In this document: positions 41,032 to 64,000 of the stretch, piece by piece
Numbering within the stretch: position 1 is the first letter of the stretch
How the letters are laid out: each line of letters starts with the position of its first letter
NCBI GenBank assembly: GCA_002269645.1
Contig: NIVC01000434.1
Span: 540,199 to 604,198, forward strand
Length of the DNA stretch: 64,000 nucleotides
Direction of reading: 5' to 3'
Origin: Macrostomum lignano
Taxonomy: Eukaryota
Made by a program: the position numbers and the translations under genes
The notes under the pieces: generated by a model
What the model saw: only the letters and a program-made list of their open reading frames with translations
Database searches by the model: none
Told to the model about the DNA's origin: nothing

Positions 41032-56702
<15,671 letters not shown>

Positions 56703-57135: not shown

Positions 57136-57406
57136 AGTAGTATATAAAAAGACGCTTCTAGACCCAGAGCACTTTTTTAATGACCGTTTTAAGGGTCTAG
57201 AGGGGGGACACGGGGGGTAAATAAAAAAACACATCTAAACACCATTAATACATCTAATCACCCATAATCACCCCTAACAATAAAAATCACTTCCAAACAC
57301 TTCCAAACACTCCCCAACACCCCCCTCGCGTCCCCCCTCTTAAGACCTTACAAACGGCCATTAAAATAAGGTCTGATCTAGAAGCGTCTTTTTCTATACT
57401 ACTACT
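57136..57406. repeat. 270-bp foldback with AGTAGT...ACTACT ends
   Basis: Left arm agtagtatataaaaagacgcttctaga...ggggggacacgggggg (57136-~57217) is inverted relative to the right arm cccccctcgcgtcccccc...tctagaagcgtctttttctatactactact (~57320-57406). Confidence 0.88.
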
Positions 57407-57791: not shown

Positions 57792-58016
57792 ATGAACTAT
57801 TATTCTATAACAGAAACGACATTTATTGTGAAAAATATATATAAAAAAATGAAGGTAAACTATTCCTACATCGGAAATGTTCCAATTAATGAACTTAATG
57901 AAAATTTAAGTTTGATAACAGTTGAACAAATGTCAATAATAATATTAGTAACAATTATAGTAATAATATTGTTTTTGTTTGTTATAAAAAATTTACTACC
58001 ATGTTGTCTCAAGTAA
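57792..58016 (+). CDS. Hypothetical small membrane protein
   Basis: C-terminal hydrophobic stretch IIILVTIIVIILFLFVI followed by KNLLPCCLK. Confidence 0.5.
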   Translation: MNYYSITETTFIVKNIYKKMKVNYSYIGNVPINELNENLSLITVEQMSIIILVTIIVIILFLFVIKNLLPCCLK

Positions 58017-58026
58017 TTGTTCGAAC

Positions 58027-59175
58027 TTAGTTCGCTGATATTAGTTGGTTCTCATAAAACGAACCCAATATTTCTTCACCGTCCTTATCAGCAATTATAT
58101 AGGTTGTAGGATTGGTATTTAAAACTTTACTGATAGTAAATTTCTCACTTATCTTCCAATATCCTTTTCTTCCTTTTTCAAACTTATCTTTCCATTTATA
58201 GATATAAACAGAATCACCAACCTTAAAAGATTTCTTTTTATTTTTTTCAAATTTTCCAAAAGTAACTTTAACGTTTTCAGGATTGTTATAAGCTTGTTGA
58301 GGAGTCATCTTTATAGCTGAATGATATGAATTGTTATAATCTTTCACTACGTCTGGTAATATTTTTACCCACTTTTGGTTACCATTAAGACTAAACTGAA
58401 ACCATAATTTCTTACCTAAAGTTCGATTAAATCTTTCTATTAATGCGTTTTTACTCTCTCCATAAATAGAATAAATTTTATTAATATACTCCCCATTCGC
58501 GTCTTTTTTCCTTTCTTTTCCTTTTTCAAAATGATACAATTTATACATATGAGGATTGTAAAATTCTTTTCCTTCATCAACACACAATCTTTCGCTTTTT
58601 TCTCCAAGACTTCTAAAAGCAGCAGCAACCTCCTCTCCCTTTTTGGATTTTAAAGGAACAGCCCACGCGTATCGAGTAAAACCATCTAATATGGTTAAGA
58701 TATATTTATATCCTCTTTCGTTCGGCATCGACATTAAATCAGCATACCAAATTTCATTCTTTTTGAAGTTCATGATTTTTCTATAAAATTTAGGTTTTCG
58801 ATATTCTTTATGAAGAATCTTTGCCTCATCAGAACTTAACCCACCACCACTTAATAATAAACACTCGACACAATTATTTCCATGTTGATTATAATTAATT
58901 CCCAAACCAAATTTAACTTTAGACTGCAAAATCTTTTTAACCATCCACCTAGTTAATCTTTGCCCTACCGATAATCCCTGCAAGTTATCTAATCCTTGAA
59001 TCATTTTTTGATCGGCTTCATGTTTTAATCTTAATGCTTCCTCGGGCGGGTTCTTGTCAGCATCTCTATATGCTAAGTCGTGATAGTATGCTAACCAATC
59101 AATCCCATTTATTGGAATTGAATCAGATTTTGGAGTATTGTCAGGATTTAATCTCAAATCTAAGCGAGTGCCGGG
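58027..59175 (-). CDS. 3' exon: PLA2 C-terminal part fused to Polinton-type DDE integrase
   Basis: PGTRL...PINGIDWLAYYHDLAY...HEAD...KVKFGLG (PLA2 with HD dyad), then with no stop GGGL...LHKEYRK...WYADL...YILTILDGFTRYAWAVPLKSK...VDEGKEF...IERFNRTL...NNSYHSAIKMTP...FKVGDSV...LGSFYENQL. Confidence 0.93.
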   Translation of the reverse strand, partial: PGTRLDLRLNPDNTPKSDSIPINGIDWLAYYHDLAYRDADKNPPEEALRLKHEADQKMIQGLDNLQGLSVGQRLTRWMVKKILQSKVKFGLGINYNQHGNNCVECLLLSGGGLSSDEAKILHKEYRKPKFYRKIMNFKKNEIWYADLMSMPNERGYKYILTILDGFTRYAWAVPLKSKKGEEVAAAFRSLGEKSERLCVDEGKEFYNPHMYKLYHFEKGKERKKDANGEYINKIYSIYGESKNALIERFNRTLGKKLWFQFSLNGNQKWVKILPDVVKDYNNSYHSAIKMTPQQAYNNPENVKVTFGKFEKNKKKSFKVGDSVYIYKWKDKFEKGRKGYWKISEKFTISKVLNTNPTTYIIADKDGEEILGSFYENQLISAN

Positions 59176-59478
59176 TAGTTTACCCTCAATCTTTCGAAAG
59201 AGGCTGGAGCACACCTTAAGCGGCGATAATTACCGCCCATCTCCGTCTGCTCTCTGAACCTTCTCCTTATATTTAAAATACTTAGGAGCTTGGCTGCGCA
59301 TTGCCACCATGTCTTCAAGCTTTTTACCTTTGGGAAGAGGAGTTACCTCTGTTCCTTCAAAAGATTTCTCAATTGAAGTGGTACTTGAAGCTGTATGACG
59401 GGTTTCACGCAATTTGGAGATGTCGCCACAAATAGTGACTAGCAAGGACATTGCCTTCCTCACTCAGGCCACGGGATA
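59176..59478 (-). ncRNA. Group I intron, IC1-like, 303 nt
   Basis: Sense-strand elements: P1 exon CAGGU with IGS GCCUG (U-G at the splice site); P AAAUUGCGUGAAA (59403-59415); Q AAUGCGCAGC (59293-59302); R UCAGAGAGCA (59248-59257); S AAGGUGUGCUCC (59206-59217). P7 GAGCA/UGCUC with bulged A and G-C guanosine site; P3 AUCUCC/GGAGAU; P4 UGCGUG/UGCGCA; P5a CUUCAAG/CUUGAAG with an A-rich bulge; P5b with GAAA loop; P6a CUCCU/AGGAG; P8 GGCGGU/AUCGCC; P9 CCUC/GAGG; P9.0 AG/CU. Confidence 0.93.
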
Positions 59479-60213
59479 ACCTGTGAAGTTCATTGATGGT
59501 AGGTGTAGCTCACCCGTATACCTCCCAGTAGTAAATATTGGTGGTAAGCTTGTTAATCCTTTTTGAACATCTAAAAATCCTCCTTCAAATACTAATTGAT
59601 CGTTCCGAAGGAACGCGGACTTCGCCGATCGAACCTTTGGTTCGCATGCGTCGCATGATTGCTCATTTTTTATAGCCTTAAAAATACATGATAGCACCAA
59701 TTGTTTTGCAAATTCTTCAATTGTTGGTTGTTTAACAAATTTAGTTTTATTATCAATAGCAGCTAAGTATCTTTTATTTGTCCAATGTTCAGACTTTTTC
59801 ATATGATCTTCGTCTTTGTAATTAAATGAAGAAGCAGGAATAAAATGATCAATATGTAAAGCACCACCATAGTCTTTTGGAACATAATAATGTTTTGTGA
59901 AATTTAACCAATCAATAAAGAATTCAATTGAGCAACCAAGGTAATCAATAGTATGATTATTTTTTCGAGCATTATTTGATTTTAATAGTTGATTTATTCT
60001 ATTTCGTGAGGTGATAATAAGTTTGTAATTTTCATCAGTGTGATATTTATTTTTTATATATTCTTTATTGTTTTTATTCCACAGTTTTGATATAACTTTC
60101 TCACAAGATCGACAATCATTTCTAAATTTTTTTGAATCATTTCTCCAAAAATAAAATTCTTTTGTCATCGGTTTTTCTTGTTTACACTTAGTACAAATCT
60201 TATTAGTTTCCAT
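59479..60213 (-). CDS. 5' exon: HNH endonuclease (giant-virus type) fused to the PLA2 N-terminus
   Basis: CTKC...CRSC zinc pair, YLGCSIEFFIDWL, LHIDHFIPASSF, HWTN...DNKTK, then CDAC...EGGFLDVQK...GELHLPSMNFTG. If unspliced it stops at TGA 59464-59466 (249 aa). Confidence 0.88.
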
Positions 60214-60937: not shown

Positions 60938-62402
60938 ATGGCTGAAACAAAAACTATGTGGAGTGATAAATTTCATTTCAAAAAGCACCGACAGTATATT
61001 AATGAGGTCAGAGCAAGAGATTTAAATTATACCCTACCAACAAGTGATAATTCAAATAACTTTACTACTGGAACGGTAACTTTTGACATCGGCGCAACCA
61101 ACACTATATTGGATATGAAAAATGCGTTTTTCCGCGTTAGATGGTTGTATACTAGAAATGATGGAACTGCTCTTGCAGCCGGAGATATCGCAGATCGATC
61201 CGGAATAATAATAGAAAATGATTGGTTTTATAAATGTTTTTCCCAAGCTCAACTAACTGTTAATGGTGCTGAGGTTGAGACATCATCAAACCCCGCAGAG
61301 ATTAATGGAGTTTTGAAACATTTAAATTATACTTATTTATCAAAACAAGTTGGTGATAATGTTGGGTGGATGCCGGATAAAGGTAACGGCAAGCAGTAGT
61401 TTTCCCTAATGTACAAAACGCAGCCGGTGCAGATACTGCAGCGCTAATTGTTTACCTTAATACAAACATAGTTCCAGTTGTAACCACTATGACTAATACA
61501 AAAGATATTAATACTGGTTTTATAGATCGTCAGAATAAATTCCCAGTCGTTTTAACCACAGCAACAGCATATGAGCAGGACTTTTCAATCTTTCCACTAT
61601 TTGGGTTTTTCTCACCAAATCGGGTATGGAAAGGATTAAAATTTGGGATACAGTTGCAAATATCTGGTGGATATCAGCCTAGGATACTTTATGGAACCTC
61701 AATTTCAACCGATATAGCAGTTCGTATAGATTCAATTCAATTAGTCGTACCAACTATTGAGGTAACAGCCCCACTTTTAAAACACATCGATAATCAGTTA
61801 ACGCATGATCAGGAAATATTTTATTTGAATCGTCGACATTTTATGCGAACCATTAATAATAACCAGGATTCATTCCAGTGGCAAATACTGACATCAAAAC
61901 GTCGGTGAGATATATTTTTGTTTGTTTAAGATAACAAATAGAAGGAGTAAAAGAGCAAATGGGGATTTATATTGGCTTCAATCCGGCTGCCATAGCAGAA
62001 CAAGCAGCCACCGCAACAGACAATGCGGCTGCAGCTATTAACGAGTTTAATGTTTCAGAATATCCGCCTGCAGGTTGATGATCAATATTATCCGGTTAAA
62101 GACCCCCTAAATTTAAAATAGCAAATAATAATGTTAATGATTTTATAAAATATTATCAAGATTATGCCAAAAATGAAGCATATGCCGTCCCTCAGTACAC
62201 ACCCACAGAGTTTCTAAACATTCATCCAGTGGTTGTTTATGATCTAACGCACAGAAAGAAAACGTAGCCAATATTGGACTTAATTATATGTTAGAGATTA
62301 ATAAACCGGTAATCAGGCACTTGACGCCCACGTATTGTTTCTAGAGGAATATATGTCAATTGCTAAGCTGATGGCACGATTGTTCGGGACGCACCATTGT
62401 AA
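60938..62402 (+). pseudogene. Major capsid protein (double jelly-roll, hexon-like), frameshifted
   Basis: TFDI...LDMKNAFFRV...CFSQAQLTVNGAEVE, FSIFPLFGFF...GLKFGIQL, IDSIQLVVPTIE, VRYIFVCL, QVDDQYYP and PVVVYDLT. Frameshifts near 61390, 61900 and later; real decay and read errors cannot be separated here. Confidence 0.8.
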
Positions 62403-62451: not shown

Positions 62452-63354
62452 ATGGTAAAGGCAAAACACGATAAAATATTTCCAAATGATCCTTTTCTTT
62501 GTTTAGTAATCGGAGATCAGGTAAAGGAAAAACACATTTGTTTACGATTTATTAACAACAGATGGAATGTTAGACTATAATAATTTAATAATTTATACTA
62601 ATAAACCTAGAATAAAATATTATGAATTTCTTAAACATGGATTAAAACAAATTAAAAAAAGATCTTGTTTAGAATGTTAAGAGCATATGAGCAATATGAG
62701 GATGATGACGAACCGCGATTTAATCTAGCAGACATTGAGGATTTATGTAAAACAATGGCACAACAGCCAGAAAACATCACCGATCCCGAAGGGCGGACTT
62801 CGTCCGATCGCCCCAACTGTTTAGAGTATCAACCGATTAGCCTATGATCAAATTCCAAAACATGATAAAACACTAATTATTTTTGATGATTGTATTAATG
62901 ACGGTGATCAAGAATTGCAAAAGGAAATTTTTGTTAGTGGTAGAGGAGATGGAATTGGAGCTTTTATCTTACTCAATCCTTTAGAGAATTAGAATCGATT
63001 ATAAAAAAGAATGCAAGTTGTTGTGTAATGTTTGATTTAGATAATTATGATTTACAAAATATTCACGCTAGATTTAATCCCGGATTGGATGCAAAACCAT
63101 TTAAAAGTATGTGTAAAAAAATTTGGGATGATAGCCAATACAAACATATTTATATCAATCCGAGGTTAGAAAGGAAACATAGAATTTTAACAAATTTGAT
63201 AAAAGAAGATAATGAGGAAGAAGAGACATATATATCGGACGGAGTCCGCGACCGGTTCGATTTTCCCACTATAAAAATGACTACAAATTTAAATACTATA
63301 AAACAATTGGTAGATCGAACTAATTCAAATTTAGTACAACATTACAGTTTATAA
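62452..63354 (+). pseudogene. A32/FtsK-like packaging ATPase, frameshifted
   Basis: PFLCLVIG then (after a shift) RSGKGKTHL, Walker A near 62515-62540; LIIFDDC Walker B near 62877-62892; FVSGR and (shifted) LTQSF...IIKKNA. Confidence 0.88.
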
Positions 63355-64000
63355 TGACAACCAGCGAGCAACGGATTCAATTGCGCGATCCATTACAACT
63401 TGATCAAAGCCTAAGTTATCAAATAGGTTTAATACTATTTTCGGTTTTCAACATGCCTCAATTAATTAATGCAACAAATAATCAATTTAGATATTCTAAA
63501 GATTCCGGAGCCAATTGGACAACATTTAGCGTTAACCCAGGAGCGTATAGCTATACTGATTTGAATGCTTATATAGAAGGAGAATTAACAACTAATGGTG
63601 ATTGGGTAGCAGGAGCAATTGTTATAGGTGTTGATTTACCGTCTGGCAGATTCACACTATCACTAGGATCCGGATATCAGGTTGATTTCACAATTGCAAA
63701 TTCACTCAGAACCATACTTGGATTTAATTCCCGAATAGTTACCACATCAAGCACCGGATACAGTGGAAATATGAGGGGGAGTAAATACAATTAATATAAC
63801 AACCGACATTTCAAACGGTGGTTATATAACAGATAATAATGGAGTTTTGGTTCAACGTGGAATTATTTATTCAATCCCATTTCTTGCTGTTCCAATTGGA
63901 GAGAAAATGATTGTATCACCTCAAACCCCAATATATTACCCATTAAATCAATATAATGTTCATCAATTTATATTAGGATTGTAGATGAAAGCGATAGATT
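63354..64000 (+). CDS. Minor capsid (penton-like single jelly-roll) protein, one frameshift near 63775, runs off the window
   Basis: RIQLRDPLQL, NNQFRY, PGAYSYTDLN, LRTILGF, then in a shifted frame INITTDI...IIYSIPF...PQTPIYYPL; ATG overlaps the ATPase stop. Confidence 0.78.

Follow-up and report, generated by a model that had tools for sequence, protein, structure and literature searches.

The 64,000 nucleotides of Macrostomum lignano DNA analysed here (the window) raise the question of how a group I intron can sit in a protein gene of a virus that is integrated in an animal chromosome, and what keeps it there. An earlier note, made from the sequence alone, had described a 303-nt in-frame insert with two stops, and we recovered it at exactly the same coordinates, 59478..59176 on the minus strand. 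The covariance model RF00028 matches at 59488-59185 with 64.2 bits (gathering cut-off 50, E 8e-16) and is complete from model position 1 to 253, so the insert is a genuine group I intron, as the note had claimed, of a kind that is common in giant viruses. A scan of the whole window at the gathering cut-off and an E-value scan of 12 kb both came out without the intron, which makes its detection filter-dependent. The case shows how such introns escape notice, the window copy having been dropped twice by routine Rfam filters. At other copies the scores were 62-66 bits (L024, L240 and L241), and 73-91 bits in the sister family that we call B.

In the xGPGT motif of a parvovirus-type PLA2 domain, the intron separates the Gly codon from the Pro codon. 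Its removal restores the conserved frame, and alleles without the intron were found. Spliceosomal removal by way of the nearby GT and AG was rejected, it would shift the frame. The features of the locus, with their positions in the window, are the following.

57136..57403, no strand: element end, a 268-bp imperfect palindrome adjoining host repeats
58027..59175, minus: exon 2, the remaining parvovirus-type PLA2 domain and the rve integrase, 382 codons
59176..59478, minus: group I intron of 303 nt without an ORF, ending in A in this copy
59176..59205, minus: P9.0 and P9 with a GAAA loop, without P9.1/P9.2
59206..59254, minus: P7 (variant pairs, G-binding G-C pair kept), 3' strand of P3, and P8
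59258..59411, minus: P4-P6 domain; P5abc has an A-rich bulge and a GAAA loop (L5b), and P6a resembles a tetraloop receptor
59425..59457, minus: P2 and P2.1; the P2.1 loop is the position of the nuclease ORF in sister family B
59459..59487, minus: P1, in which the internal guide sequence pairs with the last part of exon 1; the 5' splice site has a U-G pair
59479..59666, minus: exon 1 of the PLA2-integrase gene, ending in the Gly codon of xGPGT; 42 codons in insertion-free copies
59599..59662, minus: short insertion with several hairpins in exon 1, which varies among copies
59667..60213, minus: HNH / endonuclease VII-like gene in a swappable nuclease slot, which holds an Eco47II-type gene in other copies
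60938..61908, plus: major capsid protein-like frames, fragmented in this copy; 27.5% identity to the family B double-jelly-roll protein, E 2e-12
63324..63984, plus: homologue of a 214-aa family B gene, split over two frames

The helices that can be drawn are P1 with its U-G pair, P2, P2.1, P3-P8, P5abc, P9 and P9.0. The set listed in the earlier note is thus pairable, and P8 also forms in the computed fold. The fold of the whole intron by itself is modest (z -2.26, with 2 of 100 shuffles equally good). When 76 pairs defined on the window intron were compared with sister family B, 62 were identical, 9 had changed on both sides (one of them depending on the alignment), 3 had changed on one side and 2 were broken. 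Three pairs of P7 differ between the families, and the G-binding pair is kept. Among 34 copies of the window's own family, A, both P7 and P4 are invariant. Changes at paired positions within this family are mixed. Of these, 12 break a pair (in some cases because the P8 register was set poorly), 2 are compensatory and 8 are confined to one side; compensatory changes are carried by two A-ending copies. The unusual P7 that the note had pointed to is real and keeps its G-binding G-C pair, but the variant is not special to this element. There were six P7 variants among 125 viral intron motifs, the window's variant was seen in one of the 125, and a complementary P7 partner was present in 118. An IMG/VR contig (L103) holds an unrelated viral group I intron with the same rare variant.

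Introns of type IC1 have a P5abc with an A-rich bulge, a GNRA loop L5b with its receptor, a P2.1, and P9.1/P9.2 with P13. The first three of these are present here, and the IC1 label given in the note fits the P4-P6/P5abc scaffold. It does not fit the 3' part, where the P9.1/P9.2 extension with P13 is absent and the intron ends 8 nt past P9, nor the closest relatives found, which are giant-virus and not rDNA introns. The nearest introns that we found were in giant-virus-type contigs, with about 72% identity over 180-190 nt.

The window copy ends in A and is without the terminal G that is a hallmark of group I introns. Of the introns in 30 close copies, 22 end in A and 8 in G; A is also found in three of four diverged copies, and the A- and G-ending introns are tied to different exon 2 haplotypes. 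All 27 family B introns that could be parsed end in G. A terminal A alone does not mean that an intron is dead, since the A-ending intron Diderma L2066 is reported to splice fully in vitro (PMC3679873). It was also observed that the 3' end of the intron, 59176-59194, is complementary (19 nt, 84%) to 57844-57862, just past the integrase gene, which could be due to chance.

The surroundings agree with the Polinton/adintovirus context proposed in the note. The window has an rve integrase, pPolB lies about 10 kb from the intron in seven contigs, and family B has a double-jelly-roll capsid protein and an A32 ATPase, with a capsid-like match also in the window. PLA2-like genes have been described in adintoviruses, where PLA2 is thought to aid entry (PMC8502044). 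As for terminal repeats, one element end is seen in the window, and the other is beyond the contig end, which the window copy runs off. The end that is seen, the 268-bp palindrome, has matching arms of 27 nt and may be a hairpin-forming terminus or two ends head to head; the family B termini also have a short inverted repeat. Small polymorphic multi-hairpin insertions, which look like a tiny mobile palindromic element, occur in exon 1, in the upstream gene and in peripheral loops of the B intron (L033-L060). An in-frame fusion of HNH and PLA2 was rejected as a family trait, being present in 3 of 30 copies, and the HNH gene is a weak candidate for an obligate partner of the intron, since it also flanks an intronless allele. 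The host flank contains a LINE-type reverse transcriptase frame (1237-2475), a tRNA-like SINE head (53860-53990, by eye) and a long minisatellite (54736-55990).

The Polinton lineage that carries the intron has integrated about 100 times in this bilaterian genome. An intron search of the 764-Mb assembly gave 212 candidates, of which 40 were scored, with 96-100% identity, and 30 were fetched. A search with a core pattern gave 139 matches, a count that rests on the listed matches being intron 20-mers, as the reversed control gave 114; among the 100 listed, 81 were of the window type (family A) and 19 of the sister type (family B). The Wnt and troponin loci are each present as two to four near-identical copies in the assembly, and the intron counts are therefore probably inflated by duplicates. 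Troponin, a bilaterian marker, gave 18 matches. Two other host markers, GH6 and mir-2, gave none in searches whose control did not work, and a COX1 fragment was uninformative. Wnt genes and introns were found on common contigs (C506, C67, C952 and C393), and intron copies lie inside large contigs, which supports the integration in an animal nuclear genome that the note had suggested.

The best 28 of 29,353 candidates in a genome search with RF00028 were scored, and all 28 belong to family B. Its introns are 836-895 nt (27 with parsed ends) and occupy the same insertion site as in family A. The two families have about 60% protein identity in exon 2 and diverge widely around the insertion site apart from the Gly-Pro. 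The search for intronless alleles, which the note had recommended, gave one in family A (L032), uninterrupted at the site and with an exon 2 that is 95% identical in protein, and 27 more from related families. In the close copies, a sample biased to the top matches, the intron diverges by 1.1% as compared to 5-17% at exon third positions. The introns of the four diverged copies are 93-95% identical and their exon 2 87-94%, and the exon divergence peaks adjoining the intron.

The main story goes beyond the earlier note. It consists of a family with many copies, in which the last intron base is either A or G, of alleles that have no intron, and of an Eco47II-type nuclease. In family B an ORF lies in the P2.1 loop of the intron and continues into the ribozyme. 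Its product matches PF09553 (RE_Eco47II) with 31 bits (cut-off 25.9) and is a bare domain of 160-170 aa without any extra DNA-binding part. The model of the nuclease (pLDDT 89.9) has its best fold match in EcoO109I, with Z 9.9 and rmsd 3.7 over 164 aligned residues; a search by sequence for a solved relative gave no significant match. The nuclease is present in 28 of 28 family B loci and unbroken in 15. Among 165 homologues in the databases, ten read through in frame to the same ribozyme core, which implies that the composite of intron and nuclease exists in other samples as well.

When the genome was searched for the nuclease there were 115 matches, and a match lies no more than 1 kb upstream of at least 21 among the 81 listed family A sites. 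An ORF-bearing form of the window's own intron was expected, but the four fetched family A loci with an upstream nuclease all hold the gene outside the intron, free-standing and 161-171 aa long, next to an ORF-less intron. The free-standing gene fills exactly the slot that the HNH gene has in the window (L239-L242), and the borders are conserved. The slot upstream of PLA2 is a swappable nuclease cassette. The free-standing proteins score 18.8-23.8 against PF09553, below the Pfam cut-off, and are 64-68% identical to the intron-borne form. In a quick tree the free form is placed beside family B, among the intron-borne proteins (support 84-89) and apart from the restriction-modification (R-M) enzymes (99); both nuclease trees were quick ones and do not settle the direction between free-standing and intron-borne.

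More distant relatives of the nuclease, with about 30% identity, occur in giant-virus-like contigs and adjoin a C5 methylase in 8 of the 9 loci scanned. An Eco47II-type nuclease and a convergent C5 methylase form a recurrent R-M pair in such contigs (L062-L072). No cognate methylase was found in the parts of the elements that were scanned. Single-protein scans gave one distant locus in metagenomes and none in viral contigs or phage records. Scans of 6 distant nuclease loci, of 6 other element stretches and of 9 out of 33 IMG/VR loci with PLA2/rve gave no group I intron.

A homologue of Eco47II has been assigned to the site GGNCC, in the words of the source "without certainty" (PMC10305163). 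A Gly codon followed by a Pro codon necessarily contains this site, and the intron separates the two codons. Families A and B, over 19,629 nt, have not a single GGNCC as compared to 21.6 expected, which makes it the lowest of 256 gapped words, the next having a ratio of 0.64, and with codon shuffles the expectation is still 16.7. Divided by the middle base, W gives 0 against 14.9 expected and S 0 against 6.1. The word is also missing from 30 close loci (97,660 nt, not independent) and from the 4 diverged loci. Host DNA has 85 as compared to 95.7 expected. The intronless allele L032 has a single GGNCC in 3,029 nt, and this is the empty insertion site.

The codons at the site add to this picture. 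In the 28 intronless alleles, which represent only about five lineages, the Gly codon is GGC in 27 and GGG in one, and never GGA or GGT. GGSCC is kept in 25 of the 28, and the remaining 3 have lost the Pro codon. GGA and GGT make up 23 of 122 Gly codons in the genes of the element and are used at 4 of 6 intronless IMG/VR sites. This suggests that W sites are cut or converted and that S sites are partly resistant. Partial depletion was seen elsewhere, with 12 GGNCC as compared to 22.9 expected in other pPolB (Polinton) loci of the genome, 37 to 109.8 in the giant-virus R-M loci and 77 to 123.9 (codon shuffle) in Polinton-like loci of IMG/VR, and an outside pressure could therefore contribute. 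Avoidance of Gly-Pro at the protein level was rejected as a specific test, since the intronless homologues avoid it too (6 as compared to 37.2 expected).

The intron site, the multicopy integration, the allele states, the family and placement of the nuclease and the loss of GGNCC are observations. Taking them together, we find it probable that the intron forms a two-part selfish system with a short-site Eco47II-type nuclease for which no methylase was detected, where site loss and the intron as a plug give protection, homing or interference gives spread, and splicing restores the PLA2 frame. The nuclease would most likely still cut at GGNCC, a short site, and probably prefers its GGWCC form. 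The elements have lost every GGNCC except the one forced by the Gly-Pro codons of PLA2, presumably under the pressure of this cutting, and the intron, by splitting the one site that the virus cannot lose, would plug it. Intron-bearing elements would then be immune. When elements meet in a cell, an intronless relative would be cut at its empty site, and either be repaired from the intron-bearing copy (homing) or be destroyed (interference). Splicing likely restores the PLA2 frame in G-ending copies, and this is uncertain for A-ending ones such as the window copy. The host genome keeps its GGNCC sites, and the nuclease must therefore presumably be mostly silent or kept away from host chromatin.

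On the RNA side, none of the runs that contain the stretch is recorded as RNA, and no exon-exon joint was found in the assembled contigs of four runs from four studies (three guessed to be RNA and one of undetermined type), in which other nearby joints were listed; such contigs show presence, not absence. Assembled contigs from the same four runs bridge the exon-intron borders.

In its fullest form the proposal is that about 100 working group I ribozymes lie in an endogenous-virus protein gene of a bilaterian nuclear genome, and move along with a type II restriction enzyme that has been domesticated and goes on cutting its 5-bp site. A genome-wide purge and an intron plug would make a methylase unnecessary to the virus, with intron-borne, free-standing, HNH-replaced, empty and resistant states existing side by side. 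We put this forward tentatively, as possible but not quite probable. If it is true, each step in the evolution of the intron and its nuclease can be tested within one genome, because all the states coexist there. The case also makes it possible to test if such a ribozyme functions in an animal nucleus and if an A-ending intron can spread. As a homing or interference enzyme, the nuclease would have the specificity of a restriction enzyme, protected by site loss and an intron instead of methylation, and would connect the R-M systems of giant viruses with Polintons and with the origin of mobile introns.

An explanation to the missing GGNCC can also be that a co-infecting giant virus, through its restriction system, caused the sites to be lost, with the intron shielding the unavoidable site and the nuclease being secondary and derived from that virus. 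This would be in line with the Eco47II-type R-M pairs in giant-virus-like contigs, with the nearest introns being found in giant-virus contigs and with the partial GGNCC depletion in the other Polintons of the genome. We regard it as unlikely, as GGNCC is wholly missing only from the nuclease-carrying families, and as the nuclease stays in or beside the intron in two families and ten database proteins and groups apart from the R-M enzymes. A long recognition site is less probable still. Here the Eco47II-fold protein, or the neighbouring HNH protein, would recognise at least 14 bp, like I-Ssp6803I, and the GGNCC gap would be a by-product. Most homing enzymes do have long sites (PMC3984707), the exon divergence is highest beside the intron, and an HNH/EndoVII-like gene occupies the same slot in the window. 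However, a long site gives no reason for the loss of a 5-mer throughout the element, the nuclease has nothing beyond its 160-170 aa with which to bind DNA, families A and B differ widely around the site apart from the Gly-Pro, and the HNH gene is also found beside an intronless allele.

It is conceivable that the intron is real and no longer splices, at least in the A-ending majority, and that the element has spread as a transposon that lost PLA2 and translates its integrase from a start inside exon 2. The A at the end of 22 of 30 copies, the fragmented capsid frames of the window copy, the many database relatives that are integrase-only and the mixed changes at paired positions in family A all fit with a dead passenger. 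We nevertheless consider this improbable, since the GGNCC loss would be left unexplained, P7 and P4 show no change in any of 34 copies, and compensatory changes occur in two copies that end in A. Furthermore, the 382 codons of exon 2 form an open frame in 12 of the 22 copies with a final A and in 6 of the 8 with a final G, and Diderma L2066 splices fully with the same last base (PMC3679873). That the element should come from a food organism or symbiont, as a contaminant or through a chimeric join, is hardly credible, even though its GC is lower than that of the flank and the window copy runs off the contig end. Copies lie inside large Wnt-bearing contigs, the family B copies have a common sequence from the terminus inward and differ outside it, and the window stretch was found in 19 runs from 7 studies under one organism code, with contigs from four of the studies covering it. 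Our preferred reading thus remains that of an intron and a short-site nuclease acting together.

Parts of such a system are known from elsewhere. Endogenous Polinton-like viruses (PLVs) of protists (Rhodomonas lacustris, Paulinella and Desmodesmus) contain RF00028 introns of 309-376 nt, likewise in protein genes of integrated PLVs (PMC12220804). In the sections of that source covered here they are reported to be confined to a few protist groups; the gene that contains them is small and precedes that of the capsid, and no nuclease is assigned to them, as compared to an animal host, a PLA2-integrase gene and an Eco47II-type partner in our case. In Bodo saltans virus there are also introns at conserved motifs of viral protein genes, in nuclease-bearing and ORF-less forms, for which an interference model was proposed (PMC5871332). 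Unlike the present element, this is a giant virus of a protist that is not integrated in an animal, its enzymes are of the HNH and GIY-YIG types, and the sections covered do not describe a purge of short sites. Collaborative homing in phages involves a free-standing nuclease beside an ORF-less intron, and a composite form with the gene inside the intron, as here (PMC3984707). The difference is that both states were found in one animal genome, and that the free form is nested among intron-borne ones (quick tree, support 84-89), which would be the reverse direction.

The PD-(D/E)xK homing endonuclease I-Ssp6803I is another case of a restriction fold encoded in a group I intron, but it belongs to PF11645, has a 17-bp site and is found in prokaryotes (PMC3424549); the nuclease described here, of PF09553, has apparently retained a site of 5 bp. 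The nuclease family and fold are the same in type II R-M systems of the Eco47II kind, and the giant-virus-like relatives are paired with a C5 methylase. Here, in contrast, no methylase was seen in the scanned parts, and the protection appears to consist of site loss and the intron. With the nuclear IC1 introns of the Tetrahymena type the intron shares the P5abc scaffold, P2.1 and the nuclear location (PMC3679873), and it differs in being without P9.1/P9.2 and in lying in a viral protein gene. According to the same review, nuclear group I introns are found exclusively in rRNA genes of microbial eukaryotes and have His-Cys nucleases only. As compared to this view, the present case places group I introns in animal chromosomes by way of a virus.

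The earlier note knew of no described case in a Polinton protein gene in an animal chromosome. This holds in so far as we found no animal-nuclear case, but the introns of protist PLVs had already been published (PMC12220804). Within the literature covered, from which subscription papers, bioRxiv supplements and most of Table S11 of PMC12220804 were left outside, neither a group I intron in an animal nucleus nor an intron nuclease of the Eco47II type was found, and term look-ups in PMC10748475, PMC11296320, PMC11131425, PMC11957031 and 10.64898/2026.10.13.758929 gave no such intron.

It was also possible to observe traces of related arrangements. In the databases there are PLA2-integrase proteins that consist of exon 2 only and start with a peptide derived from the intron (P0021, P0002 and P0051); two of them, P0021 and P0002, both list a 4,853-nt contig, which is probably the same intron system elsewhere. 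In four contigs of the genome (C2140, C2328, C629 and C954) two introns, or nuclease copies in fragments, lie a few kb to 25 kb apart, and these may be tandem, nested or insertion-broken elements.
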